NCBI GenBank assembly: GCA_043807585.1
Contig: JAZDFV010000015.1
Coordinates: forward strand, 16,071 to 80,070
Length of the DNA stretch: 64,000 nt
Source of the DNA: Candidatus Jorgensenbacteria bacterium
GTDB taxonomy: Bacteria > Patescibacteriota > Minisyncoccia > UBA6257 > GWB1-50-10
Direction: 5' to 3'
Position 1 is the stretch's first letter. The number at the start of each line of letters is the position of its first letter. This document shows positions 7,327-61,416 of the stretch, in pieces. Made by a program: the position numbers and the translations under genes. A model generated the notes under the pieces. It was not told the origin of the DNA and did no database searches. It saw only the letters and a program-made list of their open reading frames with translations.

Positions 7327-7421
7327 AGTTTTATTTTCCTTGGTTGCACATTCTCATATTCTTAAGAATATTAGAACATCATGCCACTCGTTGTTGTTTT
7401 GTTACTCATTGTACCCCGGCT

Positions 7422-10522: not shown

Positions 10523-10558
10523 AAATTACATTTCCTCGCCAGTCATGCGACTATTCTC

Positions 10559-11317
10559 TTATTCGTGCGAATTAGCCGAGGGGAAGATAACGGCCCCGCC
10601 GCGGGAGCGAATCGCGCGCCGCACCGTCGCCATACAACTTTCAAAATCTGCTGTGAGTGCCTTCTCCGTAAGGCGCACCACTACCCATCCACGCTGCTGC
10701 AAGAAAAGATCTTTGGCACGGTCGCGCCTGCGTGTGTGCGCCCCGGCGTGCGCTTTCGTGTTATCGCATTCTACCGCAATGAATCCTCGCCGGCACGATA
10801 TCGCAAAATCAAGGCAGTACCGTTTCCCGCCGGAAATCCGGTATTGCGGAATCGCGGGGATGCCACACCGCGTGAGCGCCTGCGCCACTATCTCTTCTGT
10901 TGGCACCACTCGGTAGAGTTCGAGAATCGTTCTCGCAGTCAACAAACGGTCGAGCGTTGTAAAACCGAACGAAACACGCCTCGGCGGCACGTTCCTGATT
11001 GGCCGCGGGAGTTGTTGGATGCGGCCCACGTGAATTTGTTGATATTGCTTACCCGCGTCAGGATGGGTGGCCTCATCCGGAAGCAGGTCGCGCCGCGTCC
11101 GTACGCGCGAACGAACTGTGCGCGCATAGTAACGGATGCATCGCCCCAGTCGGCCGAAGAGCGCTGGTTGGTAGAACGCGAGATAGTGAAACGCGCGCCG
11201 CGGCGCCTTGGCGACCGGCATACGGTACCAATGCTCACGGAGGAGAATGGCCAAATCGCGCCTGCGCTTCAATATACCGACAAGCACCACCCCATCCTTC
11301 GTGTGTGCGCGCTCCAT
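10559..11317 (-). CDS. DUF559 (endonuclease-like, restriction-endonuclease fold) domain protein
   Basis: C-terminal YCLDFAI...IAVECDNTKAH...DRAKDLFLQQRGWVVVRL resembles the DUF559/Vsr-like fold. Confidence 0.55.
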   Translation of the reverse strand: MERAHTKDGVVLVGILKRRRDLAILLREHWYRMPVAKAPRRAFHYLAFYQPALFGRLGRCIRYYARTVRSRVRTRRDLLPDEATHPDAGKQYQQIHVGRIQQLPRPIRNVPPRRVSFGFTTLDRLLTARTILELYRVVPTEEIVAQALTRCGIPAIPQYRISGGKRYCLDFAISCRRGFIAVECDNTKAHAGAHTRRRDRAKDLFLQQRGWVVVRLTEKALTADFESCMATVRRAIRSRGGAVIFPSANSHE

Positions 11318-11327
11318 GCCTTTCGCC

Positions 11328-12020
11328 TTAGATGTTTAAAATCTGACTTTCAAGATGTTGTAACTTCGCTAGCCCCAACATGAGTTCACCTTTTTCCTCG
11401 GAGTTCAAGAGTGAAAGATATTCCAAAGAGCTCTTCAAAATCTTGAGACATTCTTTGAGTACATAGCTGGTGTATGCGTAGTCCACATCGCCATAAGCAT
11501 CACCGCGCTCCATCTCCCAACGGTTCGTGAGCTGCCGATAGGTCTTGGAGGTTAAGGTATTCCTATACCACGCCACATCGGCCGCCGCTTCCGTTTCCAA
11601 CCACAGGCTCCCTGATGTATCTGCGGCCTCCAGCACCGATTCCACGTTCTCACGCCATTGTGAAACTTTTCTATACAGCGGAAATTGTTCCGGCTCGGGC
11701 GGCACTGGGATATTGTCAATATTGGTAATATCAATCCCCATACGCTCAGCATCTTGCCTCACTATTGCTAAGGCTTCCCCGAAAGAGGCGCCAACATCTT
11801 CAAATACGCTCTTCATGTCATCGGGGTCTTCCCCGCAATCGATATGCGCGCTCCGATCGCGCATGATGTGTCCGCAGAGCGGGCAATCTTTTTGGTTACA
11901 CGGGATGCGACGCCAGGAACATTCCATCCACTTCGGCATCTCGAACTTACCATCCTTGCCTGATTTTATCTCCCCAATGATTGGCATACTGCTGTGTTTT
12001 TTAGTGGTAATAACCTTCAC
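11328..12020 (-). CDS. hypothetical protein with CxxC...CPLCGH zinc-finger-like motif
   Basis: 230-aa ORF, no recognised family. Confidence 0.4.
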   Translation of the reverse strand: MKVITTKKHSSMPIIGEIKSGKDGKFEMPKWMECSWRRIPCNQKDCPLCGHIMRDRSAHIDCGEDPDDMKSVFEDVGASFGEALAIVRQDAERMGIDITNIDNIPVPPEPEQFPLYRKVSQWRENVESVLEAADTSGSLWLETEAAADVAWYRNTLTSKTYRQLTNRWEMERGDAYGDVDYAYTSYVLKECLKILKSSLEYLSLLNSEEKGELMLGLAKLQHLESQILNI

Positions 12021-12076
12021 GCCACCATTCTCTTATTCGTGCGAATAAGAGAATGGTCAGAGCAAAGAAGAAATGG

Positions 12077-12355: not shown

Positions 12356-12383
12356 TATGCCTTATTTTACCATTCGCGCGAAA

Positions 12384-12416
12384 ACATTCCGACATTCTGC
12401 AGAATGTGAGAATGTT
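12384..12416. promoter_or_regulatory. imperfect copy of the 40-bp palindrome (cattctgcagaatgtgagaatg core) between the divergent ArsR genes, abutting the TATAAT of the plus-strand ArsR; candidate operator
   Basis: Palindrome ends 6 nt before tataat (12423-12428); ATG at 12438. Confidence 0.5.
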
Positions 12417-12437
12417 GTGTGGTATAATGAAACTGGT

Positions 12438-12742: not shown

Positions 12743-12776
12743 GACATTCTCACATTCTGCAGAATGTGAGAATGTC
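12743..12776. repeat. copy of the 40-bp perfect palindrome family (gacattctcacattctgcagaatgtgagaatgtc) between the convergent ArsR and helicase genes
   Basis: Read directly; identical core at 15125, 16239. Confidence 0.7.
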
Positions 12777-12851
12777 GTTTAACGTAGTTGGAGTGCTCAG
12801 GACGAAGGAGGAAATTGGCCTATGTGGTGGAGAGAGGTAACAACACGTGTC

Positions 12852-15124: not shown

Positions 15125-15164
15125 AACGACATTCTCACATTCTGCAGAATGTGAGAATGTCGTT
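15125..15164. repeat. 40-bp perfect palindrome aacgacattctcacattctgcagaatgtgagaatgtcgtt
   Basis: Exact reverse-complement symmetry about ctgcag. Confidence 0.75.
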
Positions 15165-15181
15165 TTGGTGATGCGGGTCTG

Positions 15182-15403
15182 TCAGTCGGACATTTTCCAC
15201 TGGACGCGGCCGACGGTGCCGTCCGTTAGGCGCACCTTGATGCCGCGCGGGTGGATGCCCTTGGACGTCAAAATCTCCTTCACTATCCCCTGCGTGTAGT
15301 TCGTCGTACCGTAGTTTTCTTTCTCTATGATCCAGACGGCGTCCCCGGGTTTCACTTCGCTCCGCTTCGGCGGATTGGGATTGTCGGGTCCGTGCTTTCT
15401 CAT
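15182..15403 (-). CDS. YwbE-family (DUF2196) small protein
   Basis: GIVKEILTSKGIHPRGIKVRLTDGTVGRVQ matches the YwbE signature. Confidence 0.7.
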   Translation of the reverse strand: MRKHGPDNPNPPKRSEVKPGDAVWIIEKENYGTTNYTQGIVKEILTSKGIHPRGIKVRLTDGTVGRVQWKMSD

Positions 15404-15441
15404 GTTCGTTTTGTCATTCTACCTCAAAACGCCGCGCGCGG

Positions 15442-16134: not shown

Positions 16135-16164
16135 ATCTCTATTCTATCTCAAAACGCCATGCGG

Positions 16165-16204
16165 GGTACTATAGGCTAATTCGCACGAATTAGCCTATAG
16201 TACC
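16165..16204. repeat. 40-bp palindrome ggtactataggctaattcgcacgaattagcctatagtacc (GGTACTA...TAGTACC outer arms, long spacer)
   Basis: Read directly; followed by a ccattcgcgcgaattagagaatgg module also present at 12367 and 12025. Confidence 0.55.
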
Positions 16205-16238
16205 ATTCGCGCGAATTAGAGAATGGGACTCAAGCAAG

Positions 16239-16274
16239 AACATTCTCACATTCTGCAGAATGTGAGAATGTCGT
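16239..16274. repeat. copy of the 40-bp palindrome family
   Basis: aacattctcacattctgcagaatgtgagaatgtcgtt. Confidence 0.7.
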
Positions 16275-16362
16275 TCTCTATGATCCAGACGGCATCCCTG
16301 GGTTTCACTTCGCTCCGCTTCGGCGGATTAGGATTGTCGGGTCCTTGCTTCCCCATATTCGT
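16264..16362 (-). pseudogene. internally deleted remnant of a duplicated ywbE-like gene (5-prime about 90 nt only)
   Basis: 16275-16362 is near-identical to 15308-15403 (the ywbE 5-prime end); a deletion junction joins it directly to the palindrome. Confidence 0.6.
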
Positions 16363-16399
16363 TTTGTCATTTTAACATTTTCGCCTTACTTCTCGTTGG

Positions 16400-18844: not shown

Positions 18845-18897
18845 AAAAACGCCCGCTTGGGCGGGTTTGGATTATCGGGTCCGAATTTACGCATATT
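18845..18897 (-). pseudogene. second short remnant of the ywbE-like 5-prime end
   Basis: gcccgcttgggcgggtttggattatcgggtccgaatttacgcatattcgttttgtcatttta parallels 15345-15420. Confidence 0.45.
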
Positions 18898-19002
18898 CGT
18901 TTTGTCATTTTACACCAAAATGACGACTATTAACCTGTTATTAGAAGCATTGACATAGAGAGTACGTGGCGTTAATATACCGTCGGTTACTTTTGAGAGT
19001 GC

Positions 19003-20329: not shown

Positions 20330-22921
20330 CTACTTCTTCGCCAACTGAAGAATGGTTTTGATGACCGTATCCGGATTGAGAGAGATGCTCTCTATCCCCT
20401 TCCTGATGAGGAACGCGGCGAAGTCGGGGTAGTCCGAGGGTGCCTGGCCGCAGATGCCGCTGTATTTTTTTCGCTTGCGGCACTTCGCGATGACCTCCGC
20501 GATCATCTTCTTCACCGCCGGGTTGTTCTCGTTCGCGATGTGGGTGACGATTCCGGAATCGCGGTCGAGGCCCAGGACGAGCTGGGCTAGGTCGTTGGAC
20601 CCGATGGACATACCGTCAAAAATGTCCAGGAACTCATCGGCGAGGAGAATGTTGGAGGGGATTTCGCACATCACATAAACCCGCAACGGGTTTATGTGAC
20701 CCTGAGCCTGTCGAAGGGTTGTTTTCCCTCGCTTCAAACCGAAGCGCGCCATTGCGGCGAGTACCTTTCTTCCCTCCTCCGGCGTGCGGCAGAATGGCAC
20801 CATCGGCACCACGTTCGTGAGGCCGAACTTCTCGCGGACGCGCCGCAGGGCTTTCACCTCCAGGCCGAACGCTTTCTCGAACTTCGGGTCGTAGTAGCGC
20901 GAGGCGCCGCGCCACCCGAGCATGGGGTTCTCCTCCACCGGTTCGTAGAGTTCACCACCCACGAGCTTCCGGTACTCGTTCGTCTTGAAATCGGAGAAGC
21001 GGATGATAACCTCGCGCGGGTAGAACGCCGCGCCTATCTTTGCAATGCCCTCGGCGAGTTCGTCCACGTAGAATTTTGTCTTATCCTTATAGCCCGGCGT
21101 CAGTTCGTCAATTTTCCGAATCAGTTTCTGCAGTTTTGATTTTTCAGTTTTCGTTTTGACTTTTGAGATTTGAGATTTGAGTTTATCGTATTCGATGAGC
21201 GCGTTCGGGTGAACCTTGATGTGCGAGGCGATGATGAACTCCAACCGCCCAAGGCCCACGCCCGCGACGGGCAGGTAGTGGTTTTTGAACGCCTCGTCGG
21301 GCGCGCCGATATTGACCATAATCTTTACCTTCGGCTTCGGGAGCTTGTCCAGGTGGTGCTCTTTTATTTCAAACGCCAGTTTCCCCTGGTACACATGGCC
21401 GGTTTCGCCGCCCGAGCAGTCCACAGTAACCGCCTGCCCCGTTTTCAGCTTCCGCGTGGCGTTTCCCGCGCCCACGATGCAGGGAATCCCGAGCTCGCGC
21501 GAGACGATGGCGGCGTGCGACGTGCGCCCACCCTTGTCTGTCACGATCGCCGCGGCGATCTTCATGATAGGCTCCCAATCGGGGTCGGTGATCTCGGTCA
21601 CGAGCACCTCGCCGGGCTTGAACGAACCAATACCCCTTATGCTCTTTATCACCCGCGCCTTTCCCGCGCCCACTCTCTCCCCCACCGCGATGCCCTCCGT
21701 AAGCACCTTGCCCTGAGGGCTTCGACTGAGCTCAGCCGAATGTCCTTGTCGAAGGGTTTTGCCCCCTGCGCGCCGAAGTGTTTTATCTTTGAGCCGGTAC
21801 TCGCGGTAAACCTTCTTACTTTCCATTGCGTGGACCGTTTCGGGGCGCGCCTGCACGATGAAGAGTTCGCCTGTTTTGCCGTCCTTCGCCCACTCGATAT
21901 CCATCCCGTTAGAGGCAGCCCGCCCCAGGGCCCCTCCGGGGCGCGCAGCGCGGGCGCGGCCTCTAACGGGACCCATCGGCCGCATACGATTCCTCACTTC
22001 TGCAAAGTGTCTCTCTATCTCGACACTCCACCGCGCGAGCGTGAGCACCTCATCCTCCGTGAGGCAGAAGCGGTTCTGGTCACGCGGCGAGACCGCCACC
22101 TTCCGCGTTCCTACGCCCGCGTAGACGAGCTTCACCGTTTTCCTCCCAAGGTTCTGGGCAATGACCGCCTTGAACCCCTGCGCCAGGGTCGGTTTGAAGA
22201 CCACGAACTCATCCGGCAGCACCCTTCCCTGCACCACCATCTCACCCAGACCCCATGAGGCATTTACCACCACCACCTTGTCGAACCCCGTTTCGGTATC
22301 AATGGTGAAGATGACGCCGGAGGCGGAGAGATCGGAGCGCACCATCTTCTGGACACCCACCGAGAGCGCCACATCCGAGTGCGTGAACCCTTGGTCCGCA
22401 CGGTACGAGATGGCGCGGTCCTTGAAAAGCGAGGCGATGCATTTCTTCGTGGCGAGGAGCACTTCATCGGCGCCGGAAACGTTCAGGAACGTTTCGTGCT
22501 GGCCGGCAAATGAAACACCGGGGAGATCCTCCGCGGTCGCCGAAGAGCGCACCGCCGTGTCCAAGTTCTTCCCGTACTTCTTCTCCAGTTTCCGATACGC
22601 CGCCCGTATCTCGCGTTTCAGGTCTGCGGGGAGTTCCGCCTTCACTATGAGTTCGCGTATCGCCTTACCGCGCCGCTGGAGGTCCTTGAGGTTGCGGGTT
22701 TTGAGGCCAGCGAGGAGCGTTTTTATTTCGCGGTCCAGCCCGGTTTCTTTCAGAAAGTAGCGGTAGGCGCCCGCGGTGATGGCGAAGCCGTCAGGCACAC
22801 TGATACCCCGCTTCGTGAGGTTCGAGTACATTTCCCCGATCCCGGCGGTCTTGCCGCCTACCTTAGGGACGTCCTTCAAACGTATGTCTTTGAACCAGAT
22901 GATGAACGGCTTATAGGTCAT
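20330..22921 (-). CDS. ppsA: phosphoenolpyruvate synthase (pyruvate, water dikinase) carrying several in-frame repeat-element insertions
   Basis: MTYKPFIIWF...VGGKTAGIGEM N-terminus, central phospho-His domain, C-terminal MCEIPSN...GSNDLAQ PEP-utilising block; 863 aa against about 790 typical. Confidence 0.85.
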   Translation of the reverse strand: MTYKPFIIWFKDIRLKDVPKVGGKTAGIGEMYSNLTKRGISVPDGFAITAGAYRYFLKETGLDREIKTLLAGLKTRNLKDLQRRGKAIRELIVKAELPADLKREIRAAYRKLEKKYGKNLDTAVRSSATAEDLPGVSFAGQHETFLNVSGADEVLLATKKCIASLFKDRAISYRADQGFTHSDVALSVGVQKMVRSDLSASGVIFTIDTETGFDKVVVVNASWGLGEMVVQGRVLPDEFVVFKPTLAQGFKAVIAQNLGRKTVKLVYAGVGTRKVAVSPRDQNRFCLTEDEVLTLARWSVEIERHFAEVRNRMRPMGPVRGRARAARPGGALGRAASNGMDIEWAKDGKTGELFIVQARPETVHAMESKKVYREYRLKDKTLRRAGGKTLRQGHSAELSRSPQGKVLTEGIAVGERVGAGKARVIKSIRGIGSFKPGEVLVTEITDPDWEPIMKIAAAIVTDKGGRTSHAAIVSRELGIPCIVGAGNATRKLKTGQAVTVDCSGGETGHVYQGKLAFEIKEHHLDKLPKPKVKIMVNIGAPDEAFKNHYLPVAGVGLGRLEFIIASHIKVHPNALIEYDKLKSQISKVKTKTEKSKLQKLIRKIDELTPGYKDKTKFYVDELAEGIAKIGAAFYPREVIIRFSDFKTNEYRKLVGGELYEPVEENPMLGWRGASRYYDPKFEKAFGLEVKALRRVREKFGLTNVVPMVPFCRTPEEGRKVLAAMARFGLKRGKTTLRQAQGHINPLRVYVMCEIPSNILLADEFLDIFDGMSIGSNDLAQLVLGLDRDSGIVTHIANENNPAVKKMIAEVIAKCRKRKKYSGICGQAPSDYPDFAAFLIRKGIESISLNPDTVIKTILQLAKK
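20672..20735. mobile_element. hairpin (cacataaacccgcaacgggtttatgtg) plus cctgagcctgtcgaaggg element inserted in-frame in ppsA (encodes KTTLRQAQGHINP)
   Basis: Same cctgagcctgtcgaagg module with an adjacent hairpin at 47986-48030 (in ychF). Confidence 0.55.
21131..21183. repeat. gagatttg-type tandem repeat inside ppsA (encodes SQISKVKTKTEKSKLQKL); related copy intergenic at 50710-50750
   Basis: ttttgacttttgagatttgagatttgag. Confidence 0.5.
21707..21765. mobile_element. short CTGAGC-family element (ggcttcgactgagctcagccgaatgtccttgtcgaaggg) in-frame in ppsA
   Basis: Same termini as the longer copies at 55617, 60158 and 50010 (reverse orientation). Confidence 0.6.
21901..21976. mobile_element. 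cccgttagag TIR element (short form) inserted in-frame in ppsA (encodes MRPMGPVRGRARAARPGGALGRAASNG)
   Basis: catcccgttagaggc ... gcctctaacgggac inverted termini as in the copies at 44842, 45946, 48936. Confidence 0.6.
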
Positions 22922-43797: not shown

Positions 43798-44844
43798 CTA
43801 GATAAAACGAGCTAAGAAGAAGAACACGAGCCCCAGGGTGGTAACCACGGCGGAGACTATCCAAAACCGCATGGTGACCTGGCTCTCTGGCCACCCCAAC
43901 GCCTCGAAGTGGTGGTGGATGGGGGTGGAGAGGAATACCTTCTTCTTGCGCAGTTTCTTGCTCGCGACCTGCACAATGACGGAACACGATTCCACCACGA
44001 AAATGAACGCAAAGAACGGCAGGAGGAGCGCCGTGTTGGTGAGCATCGCCATGACGCCGAGGGTGATACCAAGCGACATGGAACCGGTGTCTCCCATGAA
44101 AAAACGGGCGGGAAAGATATTGAACCAGAGGAAGGCGAGGAGCGCGCCCAAAATGGCGGCGTTCATGGCAGCGAGGTCATACCGGTGGATCACGAATGCG
44201 ACGACCGCGAACGCCATGAAGGCGAAGACAAGCACCCCGGCGGCGAGCCCGTCCAAGCCGTCAGTTTCGTTCGCCGAGAACGCGGTGGCGGTGAGGACGA
44301 AGACGAAAAAAGGGATATACCACCAACCGATGGTCACGGTTCCCACGAACGGGATGAAGAGCGCGTCGAACCCAAGCTTGAAGTAGAACCACCACGCGCC
44401 TACGGCCGCCACGGCGGCGTAGAGAACCAGTTTCCGCGGCACGGAGAGTCCTCCGCCGTGCGGCCCCTTTCCCAAAATGCCGAAGAGATCGTCAAAGAGC
44501 CCCACAAGCGCCGCAAAGAAGAGCGCCGCGAGAGGCAGGTACGTCTCCGCGCGATCCACAAAATTGAAATAGGATGCGAAACCGTCAAAGAGCGCATCGG
44601 CGGCGAGGAAAATAAGCGCGAGACCGAGCACCGTCACCCAAATGATGATGCCGCCCATGGTGGGCGTGTTCACTTTCCCCTTGTGGAGCGAGTAGAAGAT
44701 GGGCGCGCTTGCCTCGTCCCGGATGTTCTTTTTCTTGAGCCCGTGACGTTCCAAGAAATGAGCGACAAACGGCGTGATGAGAAGCGCCACGATGAACGAG
44801 ATGGCGAAGAGTATGAGAATGCGGACTGCCTCGAAGATTTCCAT
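43798..44844 (-). CDS. mraY: phospho-N-acetylmuramoyl-pentapeptide transferase
   Basis: Ten-TM MraY architecture and conserved motifs. Confidence 0.9.
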   Translation of the reverse strand: MEIFEAVRILILFAISFIVALLITPFVAHFLERHGLKKKNIRDEASAPIFYSLHKGKVNTPTMGGIIIWVTVLGLALIFLAADALFDGFASYFNFVDRAETYLPLAALFFAALVGLFDDLFGILGKGPHGGGLSVPRKLVLYAAVAAVGAWWFYFKLGFDALFIPFVGTVTIGWWYIPFFVFVLTATAFSANETDGLDGLAAGVLVFAFMAFAVVAFVIHRYDLAAMNAAILGALLAFLWFNIFPARFFMGDTGSMSLGITLGVMAMLTNTALLLPFFAFIFVVESCSVIVQVASKKLRKKKVFLSTPIHHHFEALGWPESQVTMRFWIVSAVVTTLGLVFFFLARFI

Positions 44845-44969
44845 CCCGTTAGAAACAGGTCGTCATAGACGACCGTAGTAAAAGCGGCTTTTTCTCAGAC
44901 GTTGTTATTTTACTTTTATAAATAAGGGATTGCATGGCGGTTGTTTTAGTTGTTTCTAACGGGATCCAT
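44842..44969. mobile_element. MITE-like element with 13-bp TIRs (cccgttagaaaca / tgtttctaacggg), filling the dac-stop to mraY-start spacer exactly; its terminal CAT is the mraY start codon
   Basis: catcccgttagaaacagg ... hairpin ... ttgtttctaacgggatccat. Confidence 0.7.
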
Positions 44970-44985
44970 GGTTGTTTACACCCGT

Positions 44986-45948
44986 TCAAAGCTCATAGGC
45001 CCGTTCGGCCCAATCAAGGATGAGGTTCACGTCGCGCACGCGATCCGTGCTCCCAAGAATCACTGCGACGAGCCGCTTGTCATGGAACGAGAGCACCCCG
45101 ACAAGATTCTCGCCGGCACTTTCCAGCGTCCCGGTCTTGCCGCCCAAAAAACGCGCGTCATTCACCAGCGGATTGATGTTCTGCGCCGTGCGGCTCGTTG
45201 GGTCATTCAGGGGCTGCACAAGGAATTGCGGTACGCGGGACCATGAGAAGATCTGCGGATGGTTTGCGAGGATGTAGCGCACCAGCCGGAGTAGGTCGTT
45301 GGGCGTAGCGGTCGTGAGGTCGGAGAGCCCAGCAGGATCGTCAATGTGGGTTCCCGTCATGCCTATCTTCAGGGCCTTTCCCTGCATTACCCGCACAAAC
45401 TCACGTTCCCCTCCGCCCGCTTCCGCAAACACCGACGCCGCATCGTTTGAAGATGTGAGGAGCATCACCCGTAGGAGATCTTGTGAGCGGTACACCTCGC
45501 CGCTCTGGAGTTCCCCCGCGTCGCCGTCGGCCGCAATTGCGGTCTCACTCACAGCCACTTTTTTGTTCTCGCCCAAATTCTCGAGTACGGTGACCGCGGT
45601 AAGCAGCTTTATCACCGAAGCGGTCGGTCGTGCGTTTTCGACGCCCATACCCCACAGCGTCATATCGTCGTCAAGCGAGTAGAGGAGCGCTCCGCGCGCG
45701 GACGGTGTAGGATCGGGCACGTCCCACTTTCTGACCGGCGCTCGATGTGCGCCGCCGAGCACTTCGAGGATCGATGCCCGTTTGAAAGAGACGTTCCCCG
45801 GAGCCGGGATAGGCGTTGAAGTTTCGGGGGCTGCGGAAATGGTTTTGGAGGAAGCGACGGGCGTTGCAACCTCAAAGTTCCGGTGGGTAAGCTCCGCGGA
45901 GATAAGAATGATGAGGATAAGGACAATGGACTGCCAGCGTTCTTTCAT
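44986..45948 (-). CDS. serine-type D-alanyl-D-alanine carboxypeptidase (PBP5/6 family)
   Basis: SxxK (ASVIK), SxN (TSSND) and KTG motifs; start at MKERW (track ORF extends through the repeat as MCYGRGARPVSNGM). Confidence 0.8.
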   Translation of the reverse strand: MKERWQSIVLILIILISAELTHRNFEVATPVASSKTISAAPETSTPIPAPGNVSFKRASILEVLGGAHRAPVRKWDVPDPTPSARGALLYSLDDDMTLWGMGVENARPTASVIKLLTAVTVLENLGENKKVAVSETAIAADGDAGELQSGEVYRSQDLLRVMLLTSSNDAASVFAEAGGGEREFVRVMQGKALKIGMTGTHIDDPAGLSDLTTATPNDLLRLVRYILANHPQIFSWSRVPQFLVQPLNDPTSRTAQNINPLVNDARFLGGKTGTLESAGENLVGVLSFHDKRLVAVILGSTDRVRDVNLILDWAERAYEL

Positions 45949-46076
45949 CCCGTTAGAGACAGGTCGCGCACCGCGACCGTAACACAACGGCCTTTTTTAT
46001 TATTAGACATCACTTTCCCTTTGTGGACGTTAAATAGCATAGTAAATTATTTTAGTTGTCTCTAACGGGATTCATA
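45946..46076. mobile_element. second copy of the cccgttagagaca-TIR element, lying exactly between the scpB stop and the dac start codon
   Basis: catcccgttagagacaggtcgcgcaccgcgacc... ttgtctctaacgggattcat; scpB stop tca at 46077-46079. Confidence 0.7.
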
Positions 46077-46718
46077 TCAGTGTTGCGGTGCCGTTTCGGC
46101 AGGGGTGGTCTCCGCTCCCGTATCCATTTCGATGCGCGCAAGGGCGCCGTGGAACCGTTCGTACTCGGGAAGCTCTTCGACGCGGGAAAACCCAAGGTGC
46201 TTCAAAAATTGAAAGCTTGGGAGGTAGTGGAACACATTCCCCTTCCCCTCGAAGTGCTGCCGTTCCACGAGCCCTCGCACGAGGAGATTCCGGACGGTGA
46301 AACTGGAATTGACGCCGCGGATGTAGTCAATGGTGGCGCGGGGCACCGGTCCCAGGTAGGCGATGAGGGAGAGTGTTTCAAGCCCCGCGGGGGAGAGTTC
46401 CTCGCGGAACTCCTCCTGGAGAAGCCGTTCTCCCACCTGTTTCTGTTCCGCCTTGGTGGCAAGCTGCACCGCCTCGTCATGGACGATAAGGGTGAGGCCG
46501 CGCGCCGGATCCCCGGCAAGCGCCGCCTGCCACTCTTGTATGAGCGCTTCGCACTTCGCCCGGTCCACGTCGAGAAGCTTCGCGATACGGCTCATTTTCA
46601 TAGGTTCCCCGTAGGAGAAAAGGAGTGCTTCAAGGCGCGGGAGCGCTGAGGGGGGCGTGTCCATAGTGATACTCATGTTACGTGTTTTGCTCGCGCCTCG
46701 CAACGGTAATCTCTCCAA
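46077..46718 (-). CDS. scpB: segregation and condensation protein B
   Basis: LEALLFSYGEPMKMSRIAKLL winged-helix repeat typical of ScpB. Confidence 0.8.
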   Translation of the reverse strand: MERLPLRGASKTRNMSITMDTPPSALPRLEALLFSYGEPMKMSRIAKLLDVDRAKCEALIQEWQAALAGDPARGLTLIVHDEAVQLATKAEQKQVGERLLQEEFREELSPAGLETLSLIAYLGPVPRATIDYIRGVNSSFTVRNLLVRGLVERQHFEGKGNVFHYLPSFQFLKHLGFSRVEELPEYERFHGALARIEMDTGAETTPAETAPQH

Positions 46719-47454
46719 AATGGCCGGTTTGCTCGACCCTCACGAGCTGCGTTTTCAAAAGGTGGAGGATGGCGAGGAAAAGCACCACGAGCTCGCTTCT
46801 GCTCCCGCCGCGGTGGAGCGCCCCGAGGCCGAGCGGAGCACCGGTGAGCCGCGCGAGCACCTCCTCTATTTTCTTGGTGAGATTGATGATCTCCGACTTG
46901 ATGTGTCCGGTGGGTTTTGCGATGCGCTCAAGCTCTCCCAAAACGCGTCCGAAGGCGGCAGCGAGATCCCCCGCCGTGAGGCGCGCGGGCGGGTAAAAAA
47001 GCGCTTCGCTTCCCATCAAGAATTCACGCGAGCGCATGAGGGGGAACACGCTCCACCCCCGTGCGAGGTGGCGCTGCCCTTCCTTGAGCTCCCGGTAGAG
47101 CCGCAGGCGGTGTTCAAGGTCGGCCACCTCCCCTTCCTCTTCTTCGGAGAGCGTAAGGTCCGGTAAGAGCGCCTTGGATTTTATGAGGATGAGGCGCGAG
47201 GCGACCACGAGGAAATCCGCGAGGAGGCCGGGCGGAATACCGCCGCCTTTAGCGTCTTTTTCTAGTTTCTCAATATACGCGAGGAAATCCGCGGTTACCT
47301 CGGCGAGGTTCAACCGCGTAATCTCCATCTTTTTCTCTTCTATGAGCTCGAGGAGCTTGTCGAGGGGACCTTGGTAGGTTTCTGTAGCTACTTCGTAGGG
47401 CATGAGGTAATGATAGATGAAAATGGCGTTACCAACATCAAATAGACACAACAA
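46678..47454 (-). CDS. scpA: segregation and condensation protein A
   Basis: MPYEVATETYQGPLDKLLELIEEKKMEITRL matches the ScpA N-terminus; overlaps scpB. Confidence 0.8.
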   Translation of the reverse strand: MLCLFDVGNAIFIYHYLMPYEVATETYQGPLDKLLELIEEKKMEITRLNLAEVTADFLAYIEKLEKDAKGGGIPPGLLADFLVVASRLILIKSKALLPDLTLSEEEEGEVADLEHRLRLYRELKEGQRHLARGWSVFPLMRSREFLMGSEALFYPPARLTAGDLAAAFGRVLGELERIAKPTGHIKSEIINLTKKIEEVLARLTGAPLGLGALHRGGSRSELVVLFLAILHLLKTQLVRVEQTGHFGEITVARREQNT

Positions 47455-47462
47455 ACCGAACC

Positions 47463-47894
47463 CTACCTTGGAATTTTATTCTCGACACGGAGAAATATTT
47501 GCTTTATGTCTTCCAATCGAACCCTTCTCAATACCTCATCTCTATCACACCATACAACCTCTTCAATGTTCTCGAGTGGAATTGGTATTTCGTTCTCACC
47601 AAGCTCCAACGTAAATAGATGGGTAATCCCTTTTCCTCCTACCCTTCCTGGCTTTTCCAACCCATAAACAAATTCATTTTTCACTCCCGTATCCTTACAT
47701 CGATTTTCACTTACATCCAAACCGGTTTCCTCTTTTATTTCTCTTCTCAAACATTCAACGAGCGTACCATCCGTTTCTTCTTTTACACCGCCAGGAAACG
47801 TCCAAAAACCTTGCCTATGTTTTAGGAGTAAAAATTGCAGACCATTTTCAACTCTTCTAAAGGTGAGCGCTAAAACCCCCGTTATTTTTTGCAT
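47463..47894 (-). CDS. NUDIX hydrolase
   Basis: Nudix box GGVKEETDGTLVECLRREIKEETGL. Confidence 0.75.
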   Translation of the reverse strand: MQKITGVLALTFRRVENGLQFLLLKHRQGFWTFPGGVKEETDGTLVECLRREIKEETGLDVSENRCKDTGVKNEFVYGLEKPGRVGGKGITHLFTLELGENEIPIPLENIEEVVWCDRDEVLRRVRLEDIKQIFLRVENKIPR

Positions 47895-47903
47895 GAAACT
47901 ATT

Positions 47904-48938
47904 TTAGCCATGCCTAATAACCATCACATCACCGTCCTGGACCACATAATCCTTCCCCTCCAACCGTAGCCAGCCCTTCTGTTTTGCAATCGCCCACGGC
48001 GATTGTCCTGAGCCTGTCGAAGGACCGCTCACTGAACGGGCCGCTTCAATCAGTTTCTCGTACGAGATGACCTCGGCGCGGATGAACTTCTTCTCAAAAT
48101 CGGTGTGGATGACCCCCGCCGCCTGCGGTGCCTTCCAGCCGCGCTCGATGGTCCATGCCCGTGTTTCGTCCTCGCCGGTGGTGAGGAAACTGATGAGCCC
48201 CAATACCTCGTACGCCTTCTTTATGAACGCGGGTATGGCGTCAGTCGTGGCGAGGTCGGCAATAAGGTAGCCCGCACCCATTTCCTTTATCTTCGCCTTA
48301 AGCTCGTCGTTCACATCACTTTCCTTGCCATTCAAAAGCACTATTTGTTTTTTGGCTGTGAGGAGCTGGAGATTGGCGACCGCCTCTTCATGTGCGAAAG
48401 GAGTGAGAGGGTTTCCCCCCGCGAGCGTTTCTTTCGCTTTGCGAAGCACGTCACAGTCGCGAATCGCGGTTTTGTTGCCGCCGCGCGCGTCCGCCACGGC
48501 GCCCGCGAGGCGCTTCTCCAGCGTCTCGAGGTCCTTCAGCGCGAGCTCCGCGCCGATGATCCCGAGGTCGCGCACCGGATCGGAGGTACCCTCCACATGC
48601 ACGATCTCGCTCCCGCCGAAGCAGCGCACCACCTGCACAATGGCTTTGCACTCGCGGATGTGTGCGAGGAACTGGTTTCCCAAACCTTCTCCCTTATGCG
48701 AGCCCTTCACAAGCCCAGCGATGTCGTAGAATTCCACGACTGCCGGGACCACCTTCTTGGAATGAGAGAGCGTCGCGAGCTTTTCCACGCGCTCATCGGG
48801 CACCTGCACCACGCCCACATTCGGGTCAATGGTGGCAAAGGGGTAGTTCGCGATGTGCACCTCCTGCTTCGTGAGAACCTTGAACAGCGTGGATTTCCCC
48901 ACGTTGGGCAATCCCACAATACCGATACTTAATTTCAT
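47904..48938 (-). CDS. ychF: ribosome-binding ATPase YchF/Ola1
   Basis: IGIVGLPNVGKSTLF P-loop, TGS C-terminal domain; start at MKLSIG (track ORF reads through the repeat as ...PISNGM). Confidence 0.9.
   Translation of the reverse strand: MKLSIGIVGLPNVGKSTLFKVLTKQEVHIANYPFATIDPNVGVVQVPDERVEKLATLSHSKKVVPAVVEFYDIAGLVKGSHKGEGLGNQFLAHIRECKAIVQVVRCFGGSEIVHVEGTSDPVRDLGIIGAELALKDLETLEKRLAGAVADARGGNKTAIRDCDVLRKAKETLAGGNPLTPFAHEEAVANLQLLTAKKQIVLLNGKESDVNDELKAKIKEMGAGYLIADLATTDAIPAFIKKAYEVLGLISFLTTGEDETRAWTIERGWKAPQAAGVIHTDFEKKFIRAEVISYEKLIEAARSVSGPSTGSGQSPWAIAKQKGWLRLEGKDYVVQDGDVMVIRHG
47986..48030. mobile_element. hairpin plus cctgagcctgtcgaagg element in-frame near the 3-prime end of ychF
   Basis: ttgcaatcgcccacggcgattgtcctgagcctgtcgaaggacc; same module as 20672-20735. 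Confidence 0.5.
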
Positions 48939-49064
48939 CCCGTTAGAGATAGGTTGCCGCAGGCAACCGTAACACAACGGCCTTTTTATTCTCAATCAAT
49001 GTTGTGTCTTTTTGAACGTCGAATCGCACAGGTAAGGGTCTTAGTTATCTCTAACGGGATTCAT
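48936..49064. mobile_element. third full copy of the cccgttagaga-TIR element, abutting the ychF start codon
   Basis: catcccgttagagataggttgccgcaggcaacc ... ttatctctaacgggattcat. Confidence 0.7.
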
Positions 49065-49150
49065 AATCGTTTGACCTCAACTCAAGAATATCGTACACTG
49101 ATATCGGCACAAAATCCACAAAACTTTCACAGAAAGGAAGGGAGGCGCCT

Positions 49151-49459
49151 ATGCATGGCGAACTAGATCTCGGCACGGCGCTTGCGGCGTTCGTGATTCT
49201 CGCGGTTGCAGTAAGCATCTTTTTATGCGGCTTCGTGCATCTCATGACGAGGAAAGAACCGCCCGCGAAGTTAACTCATAGGGGAACGGTGACGATGCCT
49301 CCTGAAGAGTTCCGACCCCGAGGCGGATTCGTAACGGTGAAAAGTCCATGTTGTGGTGCTCCCACTTACTGGACCGATGGTGGCATTCGAATCGAGAAAT
49401 GTTCGAAATGCCATAATCCTGTCGCGCCGCCGGCGCAGTATCGCACCACGAAGGAATGA
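49151..49459 (+). CDS. small hypothetical protein with N-terminal TM helix and C-terminal CC...CSKC zinc-ribbon
   Basis: 102-aa ORF. Confidence 0.4.
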   Translation: MHGELDLGTALAAFVILAVAVSIFLCGFVHLMTRKEPPAKLTHRGTVTMPPEEFRPRGGFVTVKSPCCGAPTYWTDGGIRIEKCSKCHNPVAPPAQYRTTKE

Positions 49460-49510: not shown

Positions 49511-50161
49511 TCACTTGCCCGAGAGGACAAATCGGTACTTCTTTTTTGACCACACCGGACCAGCATATTCAACTCCAATTCTTTCGCCTTTCGCGATTTG
49601 CCTCTTGCTAACCCGCACTCCCCTGTCCTCAATCCACAAACCTGTCCGTCGGCTGGCGCGCATGCCATTGAACCGCTTATCAATTTTGAAAAACCTTGTA
49701 ACCCGCCCCGGTCCGCTAATACACCGACACCGAGGTTCAACCTCTCTGTATGGAGGTTGAACCTCCATAAATTGAACACTTCTTATTAGAACCGCCGCAG
49801 GGTATCCTTTCTCGCGCGTCACCACATTCAGCATCCAGTGCATCCCATAGGTGAAGTACACGTACCAGCGCCCGGGCGGCCCGAACATAGGGGCGTTCCG
49901 CTTGGTGAGCCCCCGCGAGGCGTGCGAGGCCCCATCATGCGGCCCGTCGTAGGCCTCCACCTCGGTTATCATTGCGACGACGTACTTACGTCGTCGTCCT
50001 GAGGACATTCGGCTGAGCCCTTCGGCGGTGAGCTCAGGGCCGAACCGCTCAGTCGAAGCCCCTGTCGAAGGACATCTCCGCACCAAGTACTTCCCCAGTA
50101 GTTCCCGCGCCACCGCAAGCGCCGGACGCTCAAAAAATTTATCCGACAACAATTTTCTCAT
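49511..50161 (-). CDS. DNA-3-methyladenine glycosylase (Mpg/AAG family) with in-frame repeat insertion
   Basis: FFERPALAVARELLGKYLV ... ITEVEAYDGPHDGASHA ... FGPPGRWYVYFTYGMHWMLNVV match AAG blocks; [27 protein letters not shown] segment is encoded by the CTGAGC-family element (50010-50075). Confidence 0.8.
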   Translation of the reverse strand: MRKLLSDKFFERPALAVARELLGKYLVRRCPSTGASTERFGPELTAEGLSRMSSGRRRKYVVAMITEVEAYDGPHDGASHASRGLTKRNAPMFGPPGRWYVYFTYGMHWMLNVVTREKGYPAAVLIRSVQFMEVQPPYREVEPRCRCISGPGRVTRFFKIDKRFNGMRASRRTGLWIEDRGVRVSKRQIAKGERIGVEYAGPVWSKKKYRFVLSGK

Positions 50162-53226: not shown

Positions 53227-53297
53227 TGGGGGGTGGTGTAACGGTAGCACGCCAGGCTTTGAACCTGGAAATTTAGGTCCGATTCCTAGCCCCCCAG
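53227..53297 (+). tRNA. tRNA-Gln (anticodon TTG); T-loop reads TCCGATT (C at position 55); CCA not encoded
   Basis: Hand-folded cloverleaf: acceptor TGGGGGG/CCCCCCA, 3-bp D-stem GTG/CAC (as in E. coli tRNA-Gln), anticodon stem CCAGG/CCTGG, loop CTTTGAA, T-stem TTAGG/CCTAG. Confidence 0.6.
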
Positions 53298-55546: not shown

Positions 55547-55616
55547 AGTTTTCTTACCCCGACCGAAACCCTCCTTCAGTAAACTTTCGGACGGGCAGGC
55601 CCTTCAACGGGTTCGG

Positions 55617-55700
55617 CAAGGGCTTCGACTGAGCGGTTCGGCCCTGAGCTCACCGCCGAAGGGCTCAGCCGAATGTCCTCACCGCAAGCAAGCTCAGGGC
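55617..55700. mobile_element. intergenic copy of the CTGAGC-family element (ggcttcgactgagcggttcggccctgagctcaccgccgaagggctcagccgaatgtcc)
   Basis: Near-identical to 60158-60232 and the reverse complement of 50010-50075. Confidence 0.65.
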
Positions 55701-59451: not shown

Positions 59452-61416
59452 TTAACGCAGTGCGTTACGGAGTATCCGCTTGCGCAGGCGGATGCTTTTG
59501 GGCGTCACCTCCACCAGCTCGTCCTCGCCGATGTACTCCAGCGCCTGCTCCAGGGAGAGCGTGCGGGGCGGGACGAGATCGTCGGTTACCGCGTCCGTCT
59601 TGGCCCGGAAGTTCGTCAGCTGTTTCTGCCTGCAAACGTTCACCGCAATGTCGTTCGCCTTGGCATTCTGCCCCGCCACCTGTCCCTCATACACCTTCTC
59701 GCCGGGACCGATGAACATGACGCCCCGTTCCTGCGCGCGCAGGAGCGCATACGCGGTGGTCGTGCCCGTTTCGTGTACGATAAGCGAACCGTGTGCGCTC
59801 GTCGGGATAAAATCCAGTTTCGGGAAGTAACCAGCGAAAAGCGAGTTCACGACGCCGGTGCCCCGGGTTTCTATTATGAACTCGTTCCGGAAACCGATGA
59901 GACCGCGGGTGGTGATGAAAAAGTGGAACGAGGCGATGCCGTTATCAACACTCATGTTTTTGAGCTCGCCCCTCCGCATGCTCATTTTCTGAATGACGAG
60001 GCCGGCATACGCCTCCGGCACCTCGATCCACACGTCCTCCGTCGGCTCCAGCATTACGCCGCTCTCCTCCTCCCTTCGACTTTGCTCAGGGTGGTACGGT
60101 ACTAAATCGCTAGATGTGCTATCGGTATTTGACGTTGCATTGTTGCCTGGGTGGTGAGGGCTTCGACTGAGCGGTTCGGCCCTGAGCTCACCGCCGAAGG
60201 GCTCAGCCGAACGTCCTTGTCGAACCATGAAAATGACCTCCGGCCGCGAGACCTGCACCTCATAGCCCTCGCGCCGCATGGTTTCTATGAGGATCGCGAG
60301 GTGCAGCTCGCCGCGCCCGCTCACGACGAATTCGTCGGCGGAGGCGCCCTCCTCAACGCGGAGCGCCACGTCATTGTCGAGTTCCCTGAAGAGCCGCTCA
60401 CGGATGTTGCGTGACGTGCAGTATTCCCCTTCCTCTCCGGAGAAGGGTGAATCATTGGCCGAGAACACCATTTTCACCGTGGGCTTTTCAATGGCGATGG
60501 GAGTCAGGGGGTCCGGATGGGCGGCATCCGCGAGCGTGTCGCCGATATTCACCTCTGGGATCCCCGCGATGGCCACAATGTCGCCCGCGGGCACGGCATC
60601 GATGGGCACGCGTCCCAAGCCGGAGAACGTCATGAGTTCCGTGATCTTGAAATTCTTGACCGCACTGCCGCTCCGGAGGTGCGCGATCGTCATGCCGTTC
60701 TCCGCGACGCCGCGATGGATGCGCCCCACTGCGATCCTCCCCTGGTAATCGTTGTATTGTATGGAAGCCACCATCATCTGGAACGGCGCATCGCTCTCCA
60801 TCTTCGGAGCGGGGATGTGCTGGAGAATGGCCTCAAAGAGCGGGGCGATATTTTTCATGGCGGCGAGGTCCGGCGCGATGCCCGCCACTCCAAATTTGCC
60901 CGCCGCGTAGAGAATGGGAAAATTCAGCTGTTCGTTCGTCGCGCCAAGCTCAAGGAAGAGCTCGATTACCTTTTCAAGCACGTAGTGCACGCGCGCACTT
61001 TTCTTGTCTATTTTATTGATCACGAGAATGATCTTATGCCCCGCGTTGAGCGCCTTCTTGAGCACAAAACGGGTCTGCGGCATCGGCCCCTCCTGCGCAT
61101 CCACGAGCAGGAGCGAGCCGTCCACCATATTAAGGACGCGCTCCACCTCCCCGCCGAAGTCCGCGTGACCGGGCGTGTCAATGATGTTGATCTTCGTCCC
61201 CCGGTAGACCACGGCGGCGTTCTTGGAAAAAATGGTGATGCCGCGCTCCCGCTCGAGCTCGTTCGAGTCCATGATGAGCTCGTTATTCACCAGCTTGCCG
61301 AGCTTGGTCTCGGATTGCTTCAGGAGCGCGTCAACGAGGGTGGACTTGCCGTGGTCTACATGAGCAATAATTGCTATATTTCGAATCTGCATAATATTCT
61401 CTAACTCTAGCTCCAA
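59452..61416 (-). CDS. typA: translational GTPase TypA/BipA carrying an in-frame repeat-element insertion
   Basis: [18 protein letters not shown]1, [13 protein letters not shown]; about 49-aa low-complexity insertion ([40 protein letters not shown]) encoded by 60158-60232. Confidence 0.85.
60158..60232. mobile_element. CTGAGC-family element inserted in-frame in typA
   Basis: gggcttcgactgagcggttcggccctgagctcaccgccgaagggctcagccgaacgtccttgtcgaa. Confidence 0.65.

Follow-up and report, generated by a model that had tools for sequence, protein, structure and literature searches.

Introduction

MIRUs are direct or tandem units of 46-101 bp, without terminal inverted repeats (TIRs), which are found in mycobacterial operons. 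PMC12548453 describes them, after Supply et al. 1997, as repeats which look mobile, insert at start codons and carry an open reading frame (ORF) that is coupled to the next gene at -4, through ATGA. We describe here an inverted-repeat element located at the start codons of mraY, dac and ychF, and inside ppsA, in a 64-kb stretch of a Candidatus Jorgensenbacteria genome (the window, that is, the whole stretch analysed). The element is inserted at the pentanucleotide ATGRR, which is duplicated, and its family is probably one of non-autonomous MITE-like transposons, tolerated at start codons by means of translational coupling. It is like the MIRUs in its start-codon location and in an internal ORF coupled to the downstream gene, an insertion that would cost little expression; the coupling is, in our case, predicted. 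By description, it differs from the MIRUs in its 13-bp inverted arms, in the 5-bp ATGRR duplication, in a built-in TAA at +4, in its hosts, which belong to the candidate phyla radiation (CPR) and not to one genus, in its in-frame insertions within genes and in the rarity of tandem copies.

In structure the element agrees with the definition of bacterial MITEs (miniature inverted-repeat transposable elements): a length below about 500 bp, no transposase gene, TIRs, a target-site duplication and multiple dispersed copies, with the exception that no parent element was found in the flanks scanned. In Correia elements of Neisseria the duplication is TA, the arms are 26 bp long and unrelated in sequence, and promoter and IHF sites are present. 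Our element resembles them in being short and non-coding, with TIRs, a duplication and many copies, and in a predicted co-transcription with the adjacent genes, giving a transcript that would form a stem; it is unlike them in duplicating ATGRR and in having no comparable promoter signals in the window copies. To our knowledge no MITE targets ATG or start codons, and none was found in the literature searched.

Rickettsia palindromic elements (RPEs) are not known to be associated with start codons or to have an ATGRR footprint. Two copies of our element (copy 4 of the window and a copy in locus L251, both in ppsA) behave like RPEs, as palindromic in-frame insertions in conserved protein genes; set beside RPEs by description, the family differs in its hosts and in that most copies are at gene starts. 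A hairpin inserted between identical codons is also a feature of T4 gene 60 and of the mitochondrial 'byps', unlike which the internal copies of our element are in frame and stop-free. Upstream-ORF coupling elsewhere shares with the element the +4/-4 stop/start spacings and the hairpin over the downstream start, and differs in that the module is here carried on a putative transposable element and built into its inverted repeat.

Start-codon elements in the window

The element is present in the window as three long copies (120-122 bp) and one short copy (67 bp), at the positions given for them in an earlier note on this DNA, and all four host genes are on the minus strand. The core motif CCCGTTAGAGACA, allowing at most 2 mismatches, has 9 matches in the window against 1.16 expected, and at least 9 were found in 0 of 100 shuffles; 8 of the 9 matches are the paired arms of the four copies. 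Read in gene sense, all four copies have the same layout: ATGNN, then TCCCGTTAGANNN ... NNNTCTAACGGG, then ATGNN. The core between the flanking repeats begins with TCCCG and ends with CGGG, and the arms read TCCCGTTAGA/TCTAACGGGA. The flanking 5-bp repeat is ATGGA in copy 1 and ATGAA in copies 2 and 3; copy 4 has ATGGG upstream and ATGGA downstream. On the plus strand the terminal CAT is the ATG of mraY (44842-44844), dac (45946-45948) and ychF (48936-48938). The parts of the four copies are as follows.

44845..44964, minus strand: copy 1 core, 120 nt, in the dac-mraY gap; sense TCCCGTTAGAAACA...TGTTTCTAACGGG
44840..44844, minus strand: copy 1 gene-proximal duplication ATGGA, whose ATG (44844-44842) is the mraY start
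44965..44969, minus strand: copy 1 gene-distal duplication ATGGA, the native start position, 16 nt past the dac stop; opens MDPVRNN*
44849..44935, minus strand: copy 1 internal ORF, 28 codons (MQSLIYKSKITTSEKKPLLLRSSMTTCF), ending at the TAA of the gene-proximal arm, 4 nt before the mraY ATG
44858..44874, minus strand: copy 1 hairpin P2, GGTCGTC-TAT-GACGACC, 1 nt from the gene-proximal arm
45949..46070, minus strand: copy 2 core, 122 nt, in the scpB-dac gap
45944..45948, minus strand: copy 2 gene-proximal duplication ATGAA, whose ATG (45948-45946) is the dac start
46071..46075, minus strand: copy 2 gene-distal duplication ATGAA, 1 nt past the scpB TGA (46079-46077); opens MNPVRDN*
45945..46040, minus strand: copy 2 internal ORF, 31 codons, ending at the TGA that overlaps the dac ATG (ATGA, -4)
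45962..45978, minus strand: copy 2 hairpin P2, GGTCGCG-GTG-CGCGACC
48939..49059, minus strand: copy 3 core, 121 nt, at the ychF start
48934..48938, minus strand: copy 3 gene-proximal duplication ATGAA, whose ATG (48938-48936) is the ychF start, aligned with Met1 of solved YchF
49060..49064, minus strand: copy 3 gene-distal duplication ATGAA, with GAGG 10 nt upstream; opens MNPVRDN*
48943..49029, minus strand: copy 3 internal ORF of 28 codons, beginning with GTG and closed by the TAA of the arm, 4 nt ahead of the ychF ATG
48952..48968, minus strand: copy 3 hairpin P2, GGTTGCC-TGC-GGCAACC
21905..21971, minus strand: copy 4, GC-rich short variant, 67-nt core, in frame within ppsA
21900..21904, minus strand: copy 4 downstream duplication ATGGA (Met-Asp of PMDIEW)
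21972..21976, minus strand: copy 4 upstream duplication, now ATGGG (one substitution)

The two arms pair over 13 bp, the length that the earlier note had assigned to the TIR, or over 15 bp if one adds the final A of the duplication and, from the ATG, its AT. The downstream ATG thus has its A and U paired in the terminal stem, for which the total fold is -36 to -45 kcal/mol (z about -5). The stem of the GC hairpin covaries across the long copies (GGTCGTC/GACGACC, GGTCGCG/CGCGACC, GGTTGCC/GGCAACC). The copies have predicted folds of -36 to -55 kcal/mol, with z = -2.8 to -5.8.

A third hairpin, GGCCGT...ACGGTC, was seen by eye at window positions 45979-45996 (copy 2), with equivalents in copies 1 and 3 and in the related loci L121-L123. 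In L121 it reads GGCCAT...ATGGTC, which makes one compensatory change among the Jorgensenbacteria copies. It overlaps the 5' strand of P2 by GGTC, always with a G-U on the gene-sense strand and an A-C on the other, and is absent from the RNAalifold consensus of the family. It could be an alternative fold specific to the sense RNA.

Empty and filled sites in related genomes

Three syntenic Jorgensenbacteria loci (L121, L122 and L123), with YchF 73-77% identical to that of the window and the gene order ychF-scpA-scpB-dac-mraY kept, were compared with the window. The ychF start is filled in the window, L121 and L123 and empty in L122 (...TTTAGTCAAGT ATGAA GCTTTC). The mraY start is filled in the window and L121 and empty in L122 and L123, which have a single ATGGAAATCTTTGA. 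The dac start is occupied in all four genomes. Empty sites thus hold one ATGAA or ATGGA, and filled sites two.

The upstream copies of the repeat sit in native start-codon context: copy 2 reads TGA-T-ATGAA|TCCCG, where the TGA-T-ATG after scpB is a native coupled stop/start arrangement, and copy 3 has GAGG 10 nt upstream. In L121, a leader homologous to that of the empty site of L122 adjoins the upstream ATGAA; the element thus has the native 5' region on one side and the coding sequence on the other. These findings identify the element as an insertion with a true 5-bp target-site duplication, the ATG being part of the duplication.

Several statements of the earlier note have to be changed. 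The element does not donate the ATG, which is duplicated from the target together with the next two bases, and the repeated flank is of 5 bp and not a shared CAT only. The scpB stop (46077-46079) was thought to abut the element; it lies 1 nt from the upstream ATG copy, not from the element proper. A precise stop-to-start placement was also proposed, whereas the target is ATGRR: upstream of the ychF copy there are about 450 nt of intergenic DNA, and in ppsA the insertions occupy a Met codon within the gene. Domestication as an intergenic cassette does not agree with presence/absence polymorphism in close relatives, which indicates dispensable insertions.

At the dac site, copy 2 is 95% identical to the L123 copy (93% in the interior), although the genes on either side are saturated at synonymous sites, with an identity of only 46-60% at 4-fold degenerate positions. 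Uniform purifying selection was considered as the reason for this identity and rejected, since the interior of the L122 copy, equally distant, is only 58% identical. Recent replacement or conversion of the copy, or a renewed insertion of an element in circulation, would agree with this pattern.

The ORF list of the window runs dac (44986..45987) and ychF (47904..48995) through the element from TTG codons, which adds a peptide P(V/I)SNGM to both. An NCBI protein of 344 aa, with its start at the downstream ATG, matches the window YchF at 100% identity. The listed YchF orthologues of 331-346 aa have no extension, the 120 listed homologues span 327-372 aa, and the L122 orthologue, with no element, has the same ATGAA start. 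The alignment with solved YchF structures, too, sets in at the downstream ATG. The added PVSNGM is therefore an artefact of the ORF caller, as the earlier note had held. The opposite view, of genuine starts farther upstream with P(V/I)SNGM as an authentic N-terminal extension, would have in its favour the TTG-start ORFs that cross the arm in dac and ychF; such a protein would begin inside a repeat and would disagree with all the YchF data above, and we give this view practically no credence.

The intergenic gaps of the relatives contain other repeats. An A/T-rich palindromic repeat (…GCGATGCGAATATAC…TTCGTATAATT…GTATATTCGCATCGC…) is present at L122 7535-7665 and at L123 7015-7130 and 5165-5340. 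It fills the dac-mraY gap in the relatives without copy 1, and the scpA-scpB gap in L123, and is apparently related to a window family at 10543-10575, 12017-12049 and 16161-16219. The same intergenic slots hold different small repeats in different lineages. Between ychF and scpA there are 14 nt in L122 and 217 nt in L121 (3300-3545), where a further hairpin repeat is present (GGGTCTAGCCGAACTATAGCGACTAGACCC, then a T-run).

A family of elements with a start-codon bias

Species-representative genomes were scanned for the two arm 10-mers 85-115 nt apart, yielding at least 120 loci (L001-L120), and metagenomes were scanned for short versions with 36-66 nt between arms, yielding at least 120 contigs. 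All family counts below rest on the matches listed in these two scans. The hosts in the genome scan were Saccharibacteria, many Parcubacteria/Paceibacterota lineages, Levyibacteriota, Kerfeldbacteria and Kazan. The listed matches are mostly in CPR phyla; a few contigs are labelled Omnitrophota, Elusimicrobia, Planctomycetia or Gammaproteobacteria.

Among 145 copies (genome scan plus window), 134 have an ATG at the gene-side junction and 97 have perfect ATGNN repeats, the variable bases of the duplication being the same on both sides. The perfect repeats are mainly ATGAA (57), ATGGA (18) and ATGAG (14). Both variable bases are purines (RR) in 93% of the duplications; at ordinary gene starts of these loci the figure is 40%. 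Beyond ATGRR no conserved target position was found around the sites. Start-like positions account for 85 of the 124 evaluable element sites and about 14 more precede ORFs of 58-132 codons, so that some 70-80% are at gene starts. In the same DNA, 4.2% of 6514 ATGRR sites are start-like (276) and 646 are intergenic. The description of the element as a MITE-like inverted repeat placed exactly at start codons was borne out as a rule of the whole family.

Of 577 ordinary gene starts of L001-L120, 15.6% have a -10-like hexamer that terminates 5-8 nt ahead of the ATG, most often at 6-7 nt, and few have a tetramer resembling Shine-Dalgarno. The CPR genomes concerned thus seem to be rich in leaderless mRNAs.

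Element cores have 56-135 nt, with a few of 180-280 nt, and their longest ORFs have about 40 codons. The arms are common to all members; the interiors form unrelated subfamilies. Arm positions 11-13 are variable yet Watson-Crick paired in 95% of copies, the first 10 positions being fixed by the search pattern. RNAalifold with 17 copies gave 24 pairs, including the terminal stem and P2, with compensatory changes at 9, and a second helix, GGNNNN/NNNNCC, covaries beside the gene-side arm. The hairpin faces the gene in 38 of the 43 copies with an asymmetric interior (38:5). T-runs are present in 28 elements on the sense strand and 50 on the antisense strand; their scarcity on the sense strand fits selection against termination in the direction of the gene.

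Tandem copies are rare and consist of whole elements sharing the duplication (arrays in L085 and L014). Several loci hold 2-3 copies, with pairs that are near-identical by eye in L089 and L096. Nested or composite copies were also noticed (L120 2572-2706; L063 2088-2232; L084 1170-1482; L100 3875-4165), such as a 30-nt 'arms only' hairpin (CCCCGTTAGAAATTACATTTCTAACGGGG) inside a full element, and longer members of 232-278 nt exist.

The insert length of short variants is a multiple of three in 54 of 130, of which 36 are stop-free. In some subfamilies AAGGAGG is located 9-11 nt before the ATG, on a phage contig as well. The suggestion that the element has its own translation-initiation context holds to this extent, that some family members bear a Shine-Dalgarno sequence just before the gene-proximal arm.

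Short members are carried by six viral contigs, which may be a vehicle of the family. On one of these (L247, from IMG/VR, phage-like, with capsid-type genes), a 60-nt mini-element at 4731-4790 is placed at a gene start, with GGAAGGAGG before the arm. On the same contig an arm-like hairpin cluster (CCCGTTAGAGG...CCTCTAAAC) at 6975-7055, upstream of a structural gene of 356 aa, has no ATG repeats.

Reading frames across the element

The arms have particular properties in all frames. Read from the upstream ATG, the left arm is stop-free (ATG-NNT-CCC-GTT-AGA). The right arm is open in the frame of the gene (TCT-AAC-GGG-ATG), which explains the '…SNGM' peptide and the tolerated in-frame inserts. 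In a second frame it has a TAA 4 nt before the ATG (C-TAA-CGGG-ATG). In the third frame, GGA-TGA overlaps the ATG when the duplication begins with ATGA, as it does in 72 of the 97 perfect duplications.

In the long window copies the upstream ATG opens a short ORF, MNPVRDN* (MDPVRNN* in copy 1). At 10 or 11 nt after it, a conserved ATG or GTG opens an ORF of 28-31 codons. Its peptide is not conserved, and its stop is placed at +4 from the gene's ATG in copies 1 and 3, and at -4 in copy 2.

This relay of ORFs was looked for in 102 non-identical elements of the family. An unbroken chain from the upstream ATG to between -4 and +10 nt of the downstream ATG was found in 65, ending at +4 in 46, at -4 in 16 and in an in-frame fusion in 3. 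The same test gave 40 when the interior was inverted and 35.8±4.4 (maximum 49, 300 shuffles) when it was shuffled. The frame of the arm TAA was open over at least 20 codons in 56% of elements in sense, against 34% in antisense and 26% after shuffling, and the gene's own frame was depleted of open readings (16%). The relay may be used by ribosomes.

The following course of events would agree with these frames. Insertion at ATGRR of an element with the 13-bp TIR TCCCGTTAGANNN and a variable interior (about 55-135 bp, a few to 280 bp) duplicates the pentanucleotide, leaving the native promoter, leader and first ATG on one side and the second ATG with an intact coding sequence on the other. Ribosomes would initiate at the first ATG by the gene's own signals and translate one to three short ORFs across the element, melting the terminal stem of 13-15 bp. 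Because this stem covers the downstream ATG, a ribosome on the left arm would also unmask the second ATG. Ribosomes would then terminate at or beside it and re-initiate there, by termination-reinitiation and/or unfolding; the unfolding and reinitiation models of translational coupling, which are reviewed in PMC12548453, would both apply. Other subfamilies would rely on a Shine-Dalgarno sequence just before the arm, or, being a stop-free multiple of three, would simply be translated (the GC-rich type, as in the ppsA copy).

Insertions within ppsA

Copy 4 is, as had been noted, in frame within ppsA and encodes ...SNGM; its predicted in-frame peptide is GPVRGRARAARPGGALGRAASNGM. The insertion has 72 nt, equal to 24 stop-free codons, and is placed between M and D of the conserved PMDIEWA. 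Solved phosphoenolpyruvate (PEP) synthases read HYG-R-PMDIEW, and the window PpsA has about 30 extra residues there. The closest relative, L252 (87% identity over the aligned region), is empty (...EQP-M-DIEW; DNA CCG ATGGA CATCGAG). In L251, a different family member of 54 nt is inserted at the same ppsA codon, with perfect ATGGA repeats on both sides. The L251 insertion is, judging from the sequences, independent of that in the window, at the same internal ATGGA.

A second GC-rich palindromic family (AGGGCTTCGACTGAGCGGTTCGGCCCTGAGCTCACCGCCGAAGGGCTCAGCCGAA...), unrelated to the element, occurs in the window at 21716-21760, 49995-50075, 55605-55690 and 60150-60225. A partial copy is in frame in ppsA, encodes TLRRAGGKTLRQGHSAELSRSPQ and is absent from 7 of 7 aligned homologues. 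Together with copy 4, the TLRRAGGKTLRQGHSAELSRSPQ insert brings to at least two the repeat-derived in-frame inserts of the window ppsA. Another copy is in an open frame at about 60150-60225.

Searches for known families, signals and a parent element

Rfam at gathering scores over the whole window left the element unmatched, the only match being a tRNA gene (53227-53297, plus strand), and no family was found over copies 1 and 2 at E<=5; the element therefore belongs to no riboswitch, ribozyme, intron or leader of that database at these thresholds. BLAST of copy 2 against GenBank phages and PLSDB plasmids gave no match. In the literature, searched by concept and by arm sequence, no description of the family was found, and the arm sequence appeared in no relevant context.

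The earlier note had considered promoter and terminator signals within the element. A sigma-70 promoter scan of 44700-49300 gave only one weak promoter-like site in the elements, inside copy 2, and an intrinsic-terminator scan of the same region gave the P2 hairpin as its sole call within them. No consensus signal was consistent in the three copies, and an element-borne promoter or terminator is thus not supported. An extended target motif, or a preference for leaderless genes, was not found at the element sites: -10 boxes 5-8 nt upstream are present at 20% of them, against 15.6% of ordinary gene starts.

A parent element was looked for as pairs of arms 160-6000 bp apart, with up to 1-2 mismatches, enclosing a gene. 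In the 251 sequences covered (1.8 Mb), this returned only non-coding elements of 182-278 bp and chance pairs. A 2.3-kb arm pair on the viral contig L247 was examined as an autonomous element and discarded, as it encloses phage structural genes and no transposase.

Origin of the family and alternative explanations

We infer mobility by transposition from the footprint, and the 5-bp duplication suggests a staggered cut by a transposase. The concentration at starts may be due either to active targeting or to the survival of copies at places where no loss but a precise one is tolerated. A number of results weigh against a MITE-like family which is tolerated through coupling. No transposase or autonomous parent with these ends was found in 251 sequences with 1.8 Mb of flanks. 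With identical arms, a symmetric transposase leaves the non-palindromic target unexplained, as well as the excess, about 8-10-fold, of start over intergenic ATGRR sites. The relay test was failed by 37 of 102 elements, and in the 'any frame open' test there was no clear difference from controls; the copies are phylogenetically related, so that the shuffle statistics overstate their independence. G-U and A-C mismatches showed no asymmetry between strands (terminal stem, 13 vs 6; hairpin, 12 vs 10), and thus nothing proves that the stems act in RNA rather than in DNA.

The excess at starts would be accounted for if the insertion machinery, or a guide, itself senses translation or transcription starts, for example as the melted promoter DNA of leaderless genes. 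We regard this as possible, although we lean against it. About 70-80% of element sites are start-like against 4.2% of ATGRR sites, few copies are intergenic in spite of 646 intergenic ATGRR sites against 276 start-like ones, and in several lineages differing copies are found at the dac and ychF starts and at one and the same codon of ppsA. On the other hand, internal Met-Asp codons of ppsA are also hit, no sequence signal extends beyond ATGRR, -10 boxes are no commoner at element sites than at ordinary starts, and survivorship in small, deletion-prone genomes could look alike. The lack of a DDE-type parent in the 1.8 Mb of flanks, the covarying stem-loops at or beside the ends, the strong orientation bias of interiors and a conserved A-C mismatch in the second helix of one subfamily (30 A-C vs 6 G-U) would also agree with a substrate of single-strand DNA recombination, either an attC-like hairpin site or a palindrome-associated element of the IS200/IS605 type, which a Y1 HUH enzyme would mobilise. 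Such systems insert beside a fixed short sequence (3' of a tetra- or pentanucleotide for IS200/IS605) and do not duplicate it, and IS200/IS605 elements have dissimilar left and right hairpin ends; here, the two arms are identical, the 5-bp duplication includes the variable positions 4-5, and empty sites are single, which makes this origin improbable.

The element might instead be neutralised between the identical AUGNN, by excision of the hairpin from the mRNA or by ribosomes bypassing from the first AUG to the second, and would then never be decoded. Identical take-off and landing codons do flank a strong stem-loop, and one copy is only two residues before DIEW, a motif of the catalytic region of PpsA. 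Bypassing would require neither a multiple of three nor the absence of stops, and yet the two ppsA inserts (72 and 54 nt) have both properties, as do 36 of the 54 short variants with a length in multiples of three, out of 130. Open relay frames are, moreover, enriched, no Rfam ribozyme or intron was matched even at E<=5, and a start codon offers no nascent peptide such as gene 60 needs; we consider this explanation quite improbable. A conserved cis-regulatory RNA leader, binding a protein or ligand and evolved in place, is very improbable: the arms are conserved across phyla, covariation supports the structure and the position is always 5' and in sense orientation, but mraY, dac, ychF, ppsA and about 100 further host genes are not related to one another, the presence or absence in close relatives with an exact 5-bp footprint contradicts it, tandem and nested copies exist, interiors are unrelated between subfamilies and Rfam gave no match.

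Taking the family as MITE-like transposons tolerated through coupling, we would rate it as a cross-phylum MITE superfamily with an ATGRR start-codon footprint and with a predicted translation-rescue function in its inverted repeat. In many CPR genomes the elements occupy, by estimate, a few percent of the gene starts (in the window, 3 of about 60), where they mislead ORF callers into false …PVSNGM N-termini and account for unexplained 120-bp 'intergenic' gaps; copies inside genes appear as inserts of 18-24 residues in conserved proteins. Transposons would in this manner persist in genomes of about 1 Mb with almost no spare DNA, by handing ribosomes on through their terminal repeat. With the family, nature provides a replicated system in which termination-reinitiation, and initiation that needs no Shine-Dalgarno sequence, could be tested in organisms that resist culture, and an enzyme that inserts DNA at gene-start ATGRR would be of interest as a tool.

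A stronger proposal, which we think rather unlikely, is that the machinery homes to translation starts as such, with the TIR as a portable three-frame rescue module, in a start-codon-specific class of transposons that is CPR-wide and possibly spread by phages. If so, this class would be one previously unrecognised, and a selfish element would occupy, in streamlined genomes, the one position from which imprecise deletion cannot remove it.

Other repeats in the window

Near-perfect palindromes of 38 nt (GACATTCTCACATTCTGCAGAATGTGAGAATGTC) are located at 7347-7384, 12383-12420, 12743-12780, 15128-15165 and 16239-16276. Beside them are direct repeats of 73-104 nt (15318-15434, 16271-16387 and 18853-18925), both families being contained in about 12 kb.

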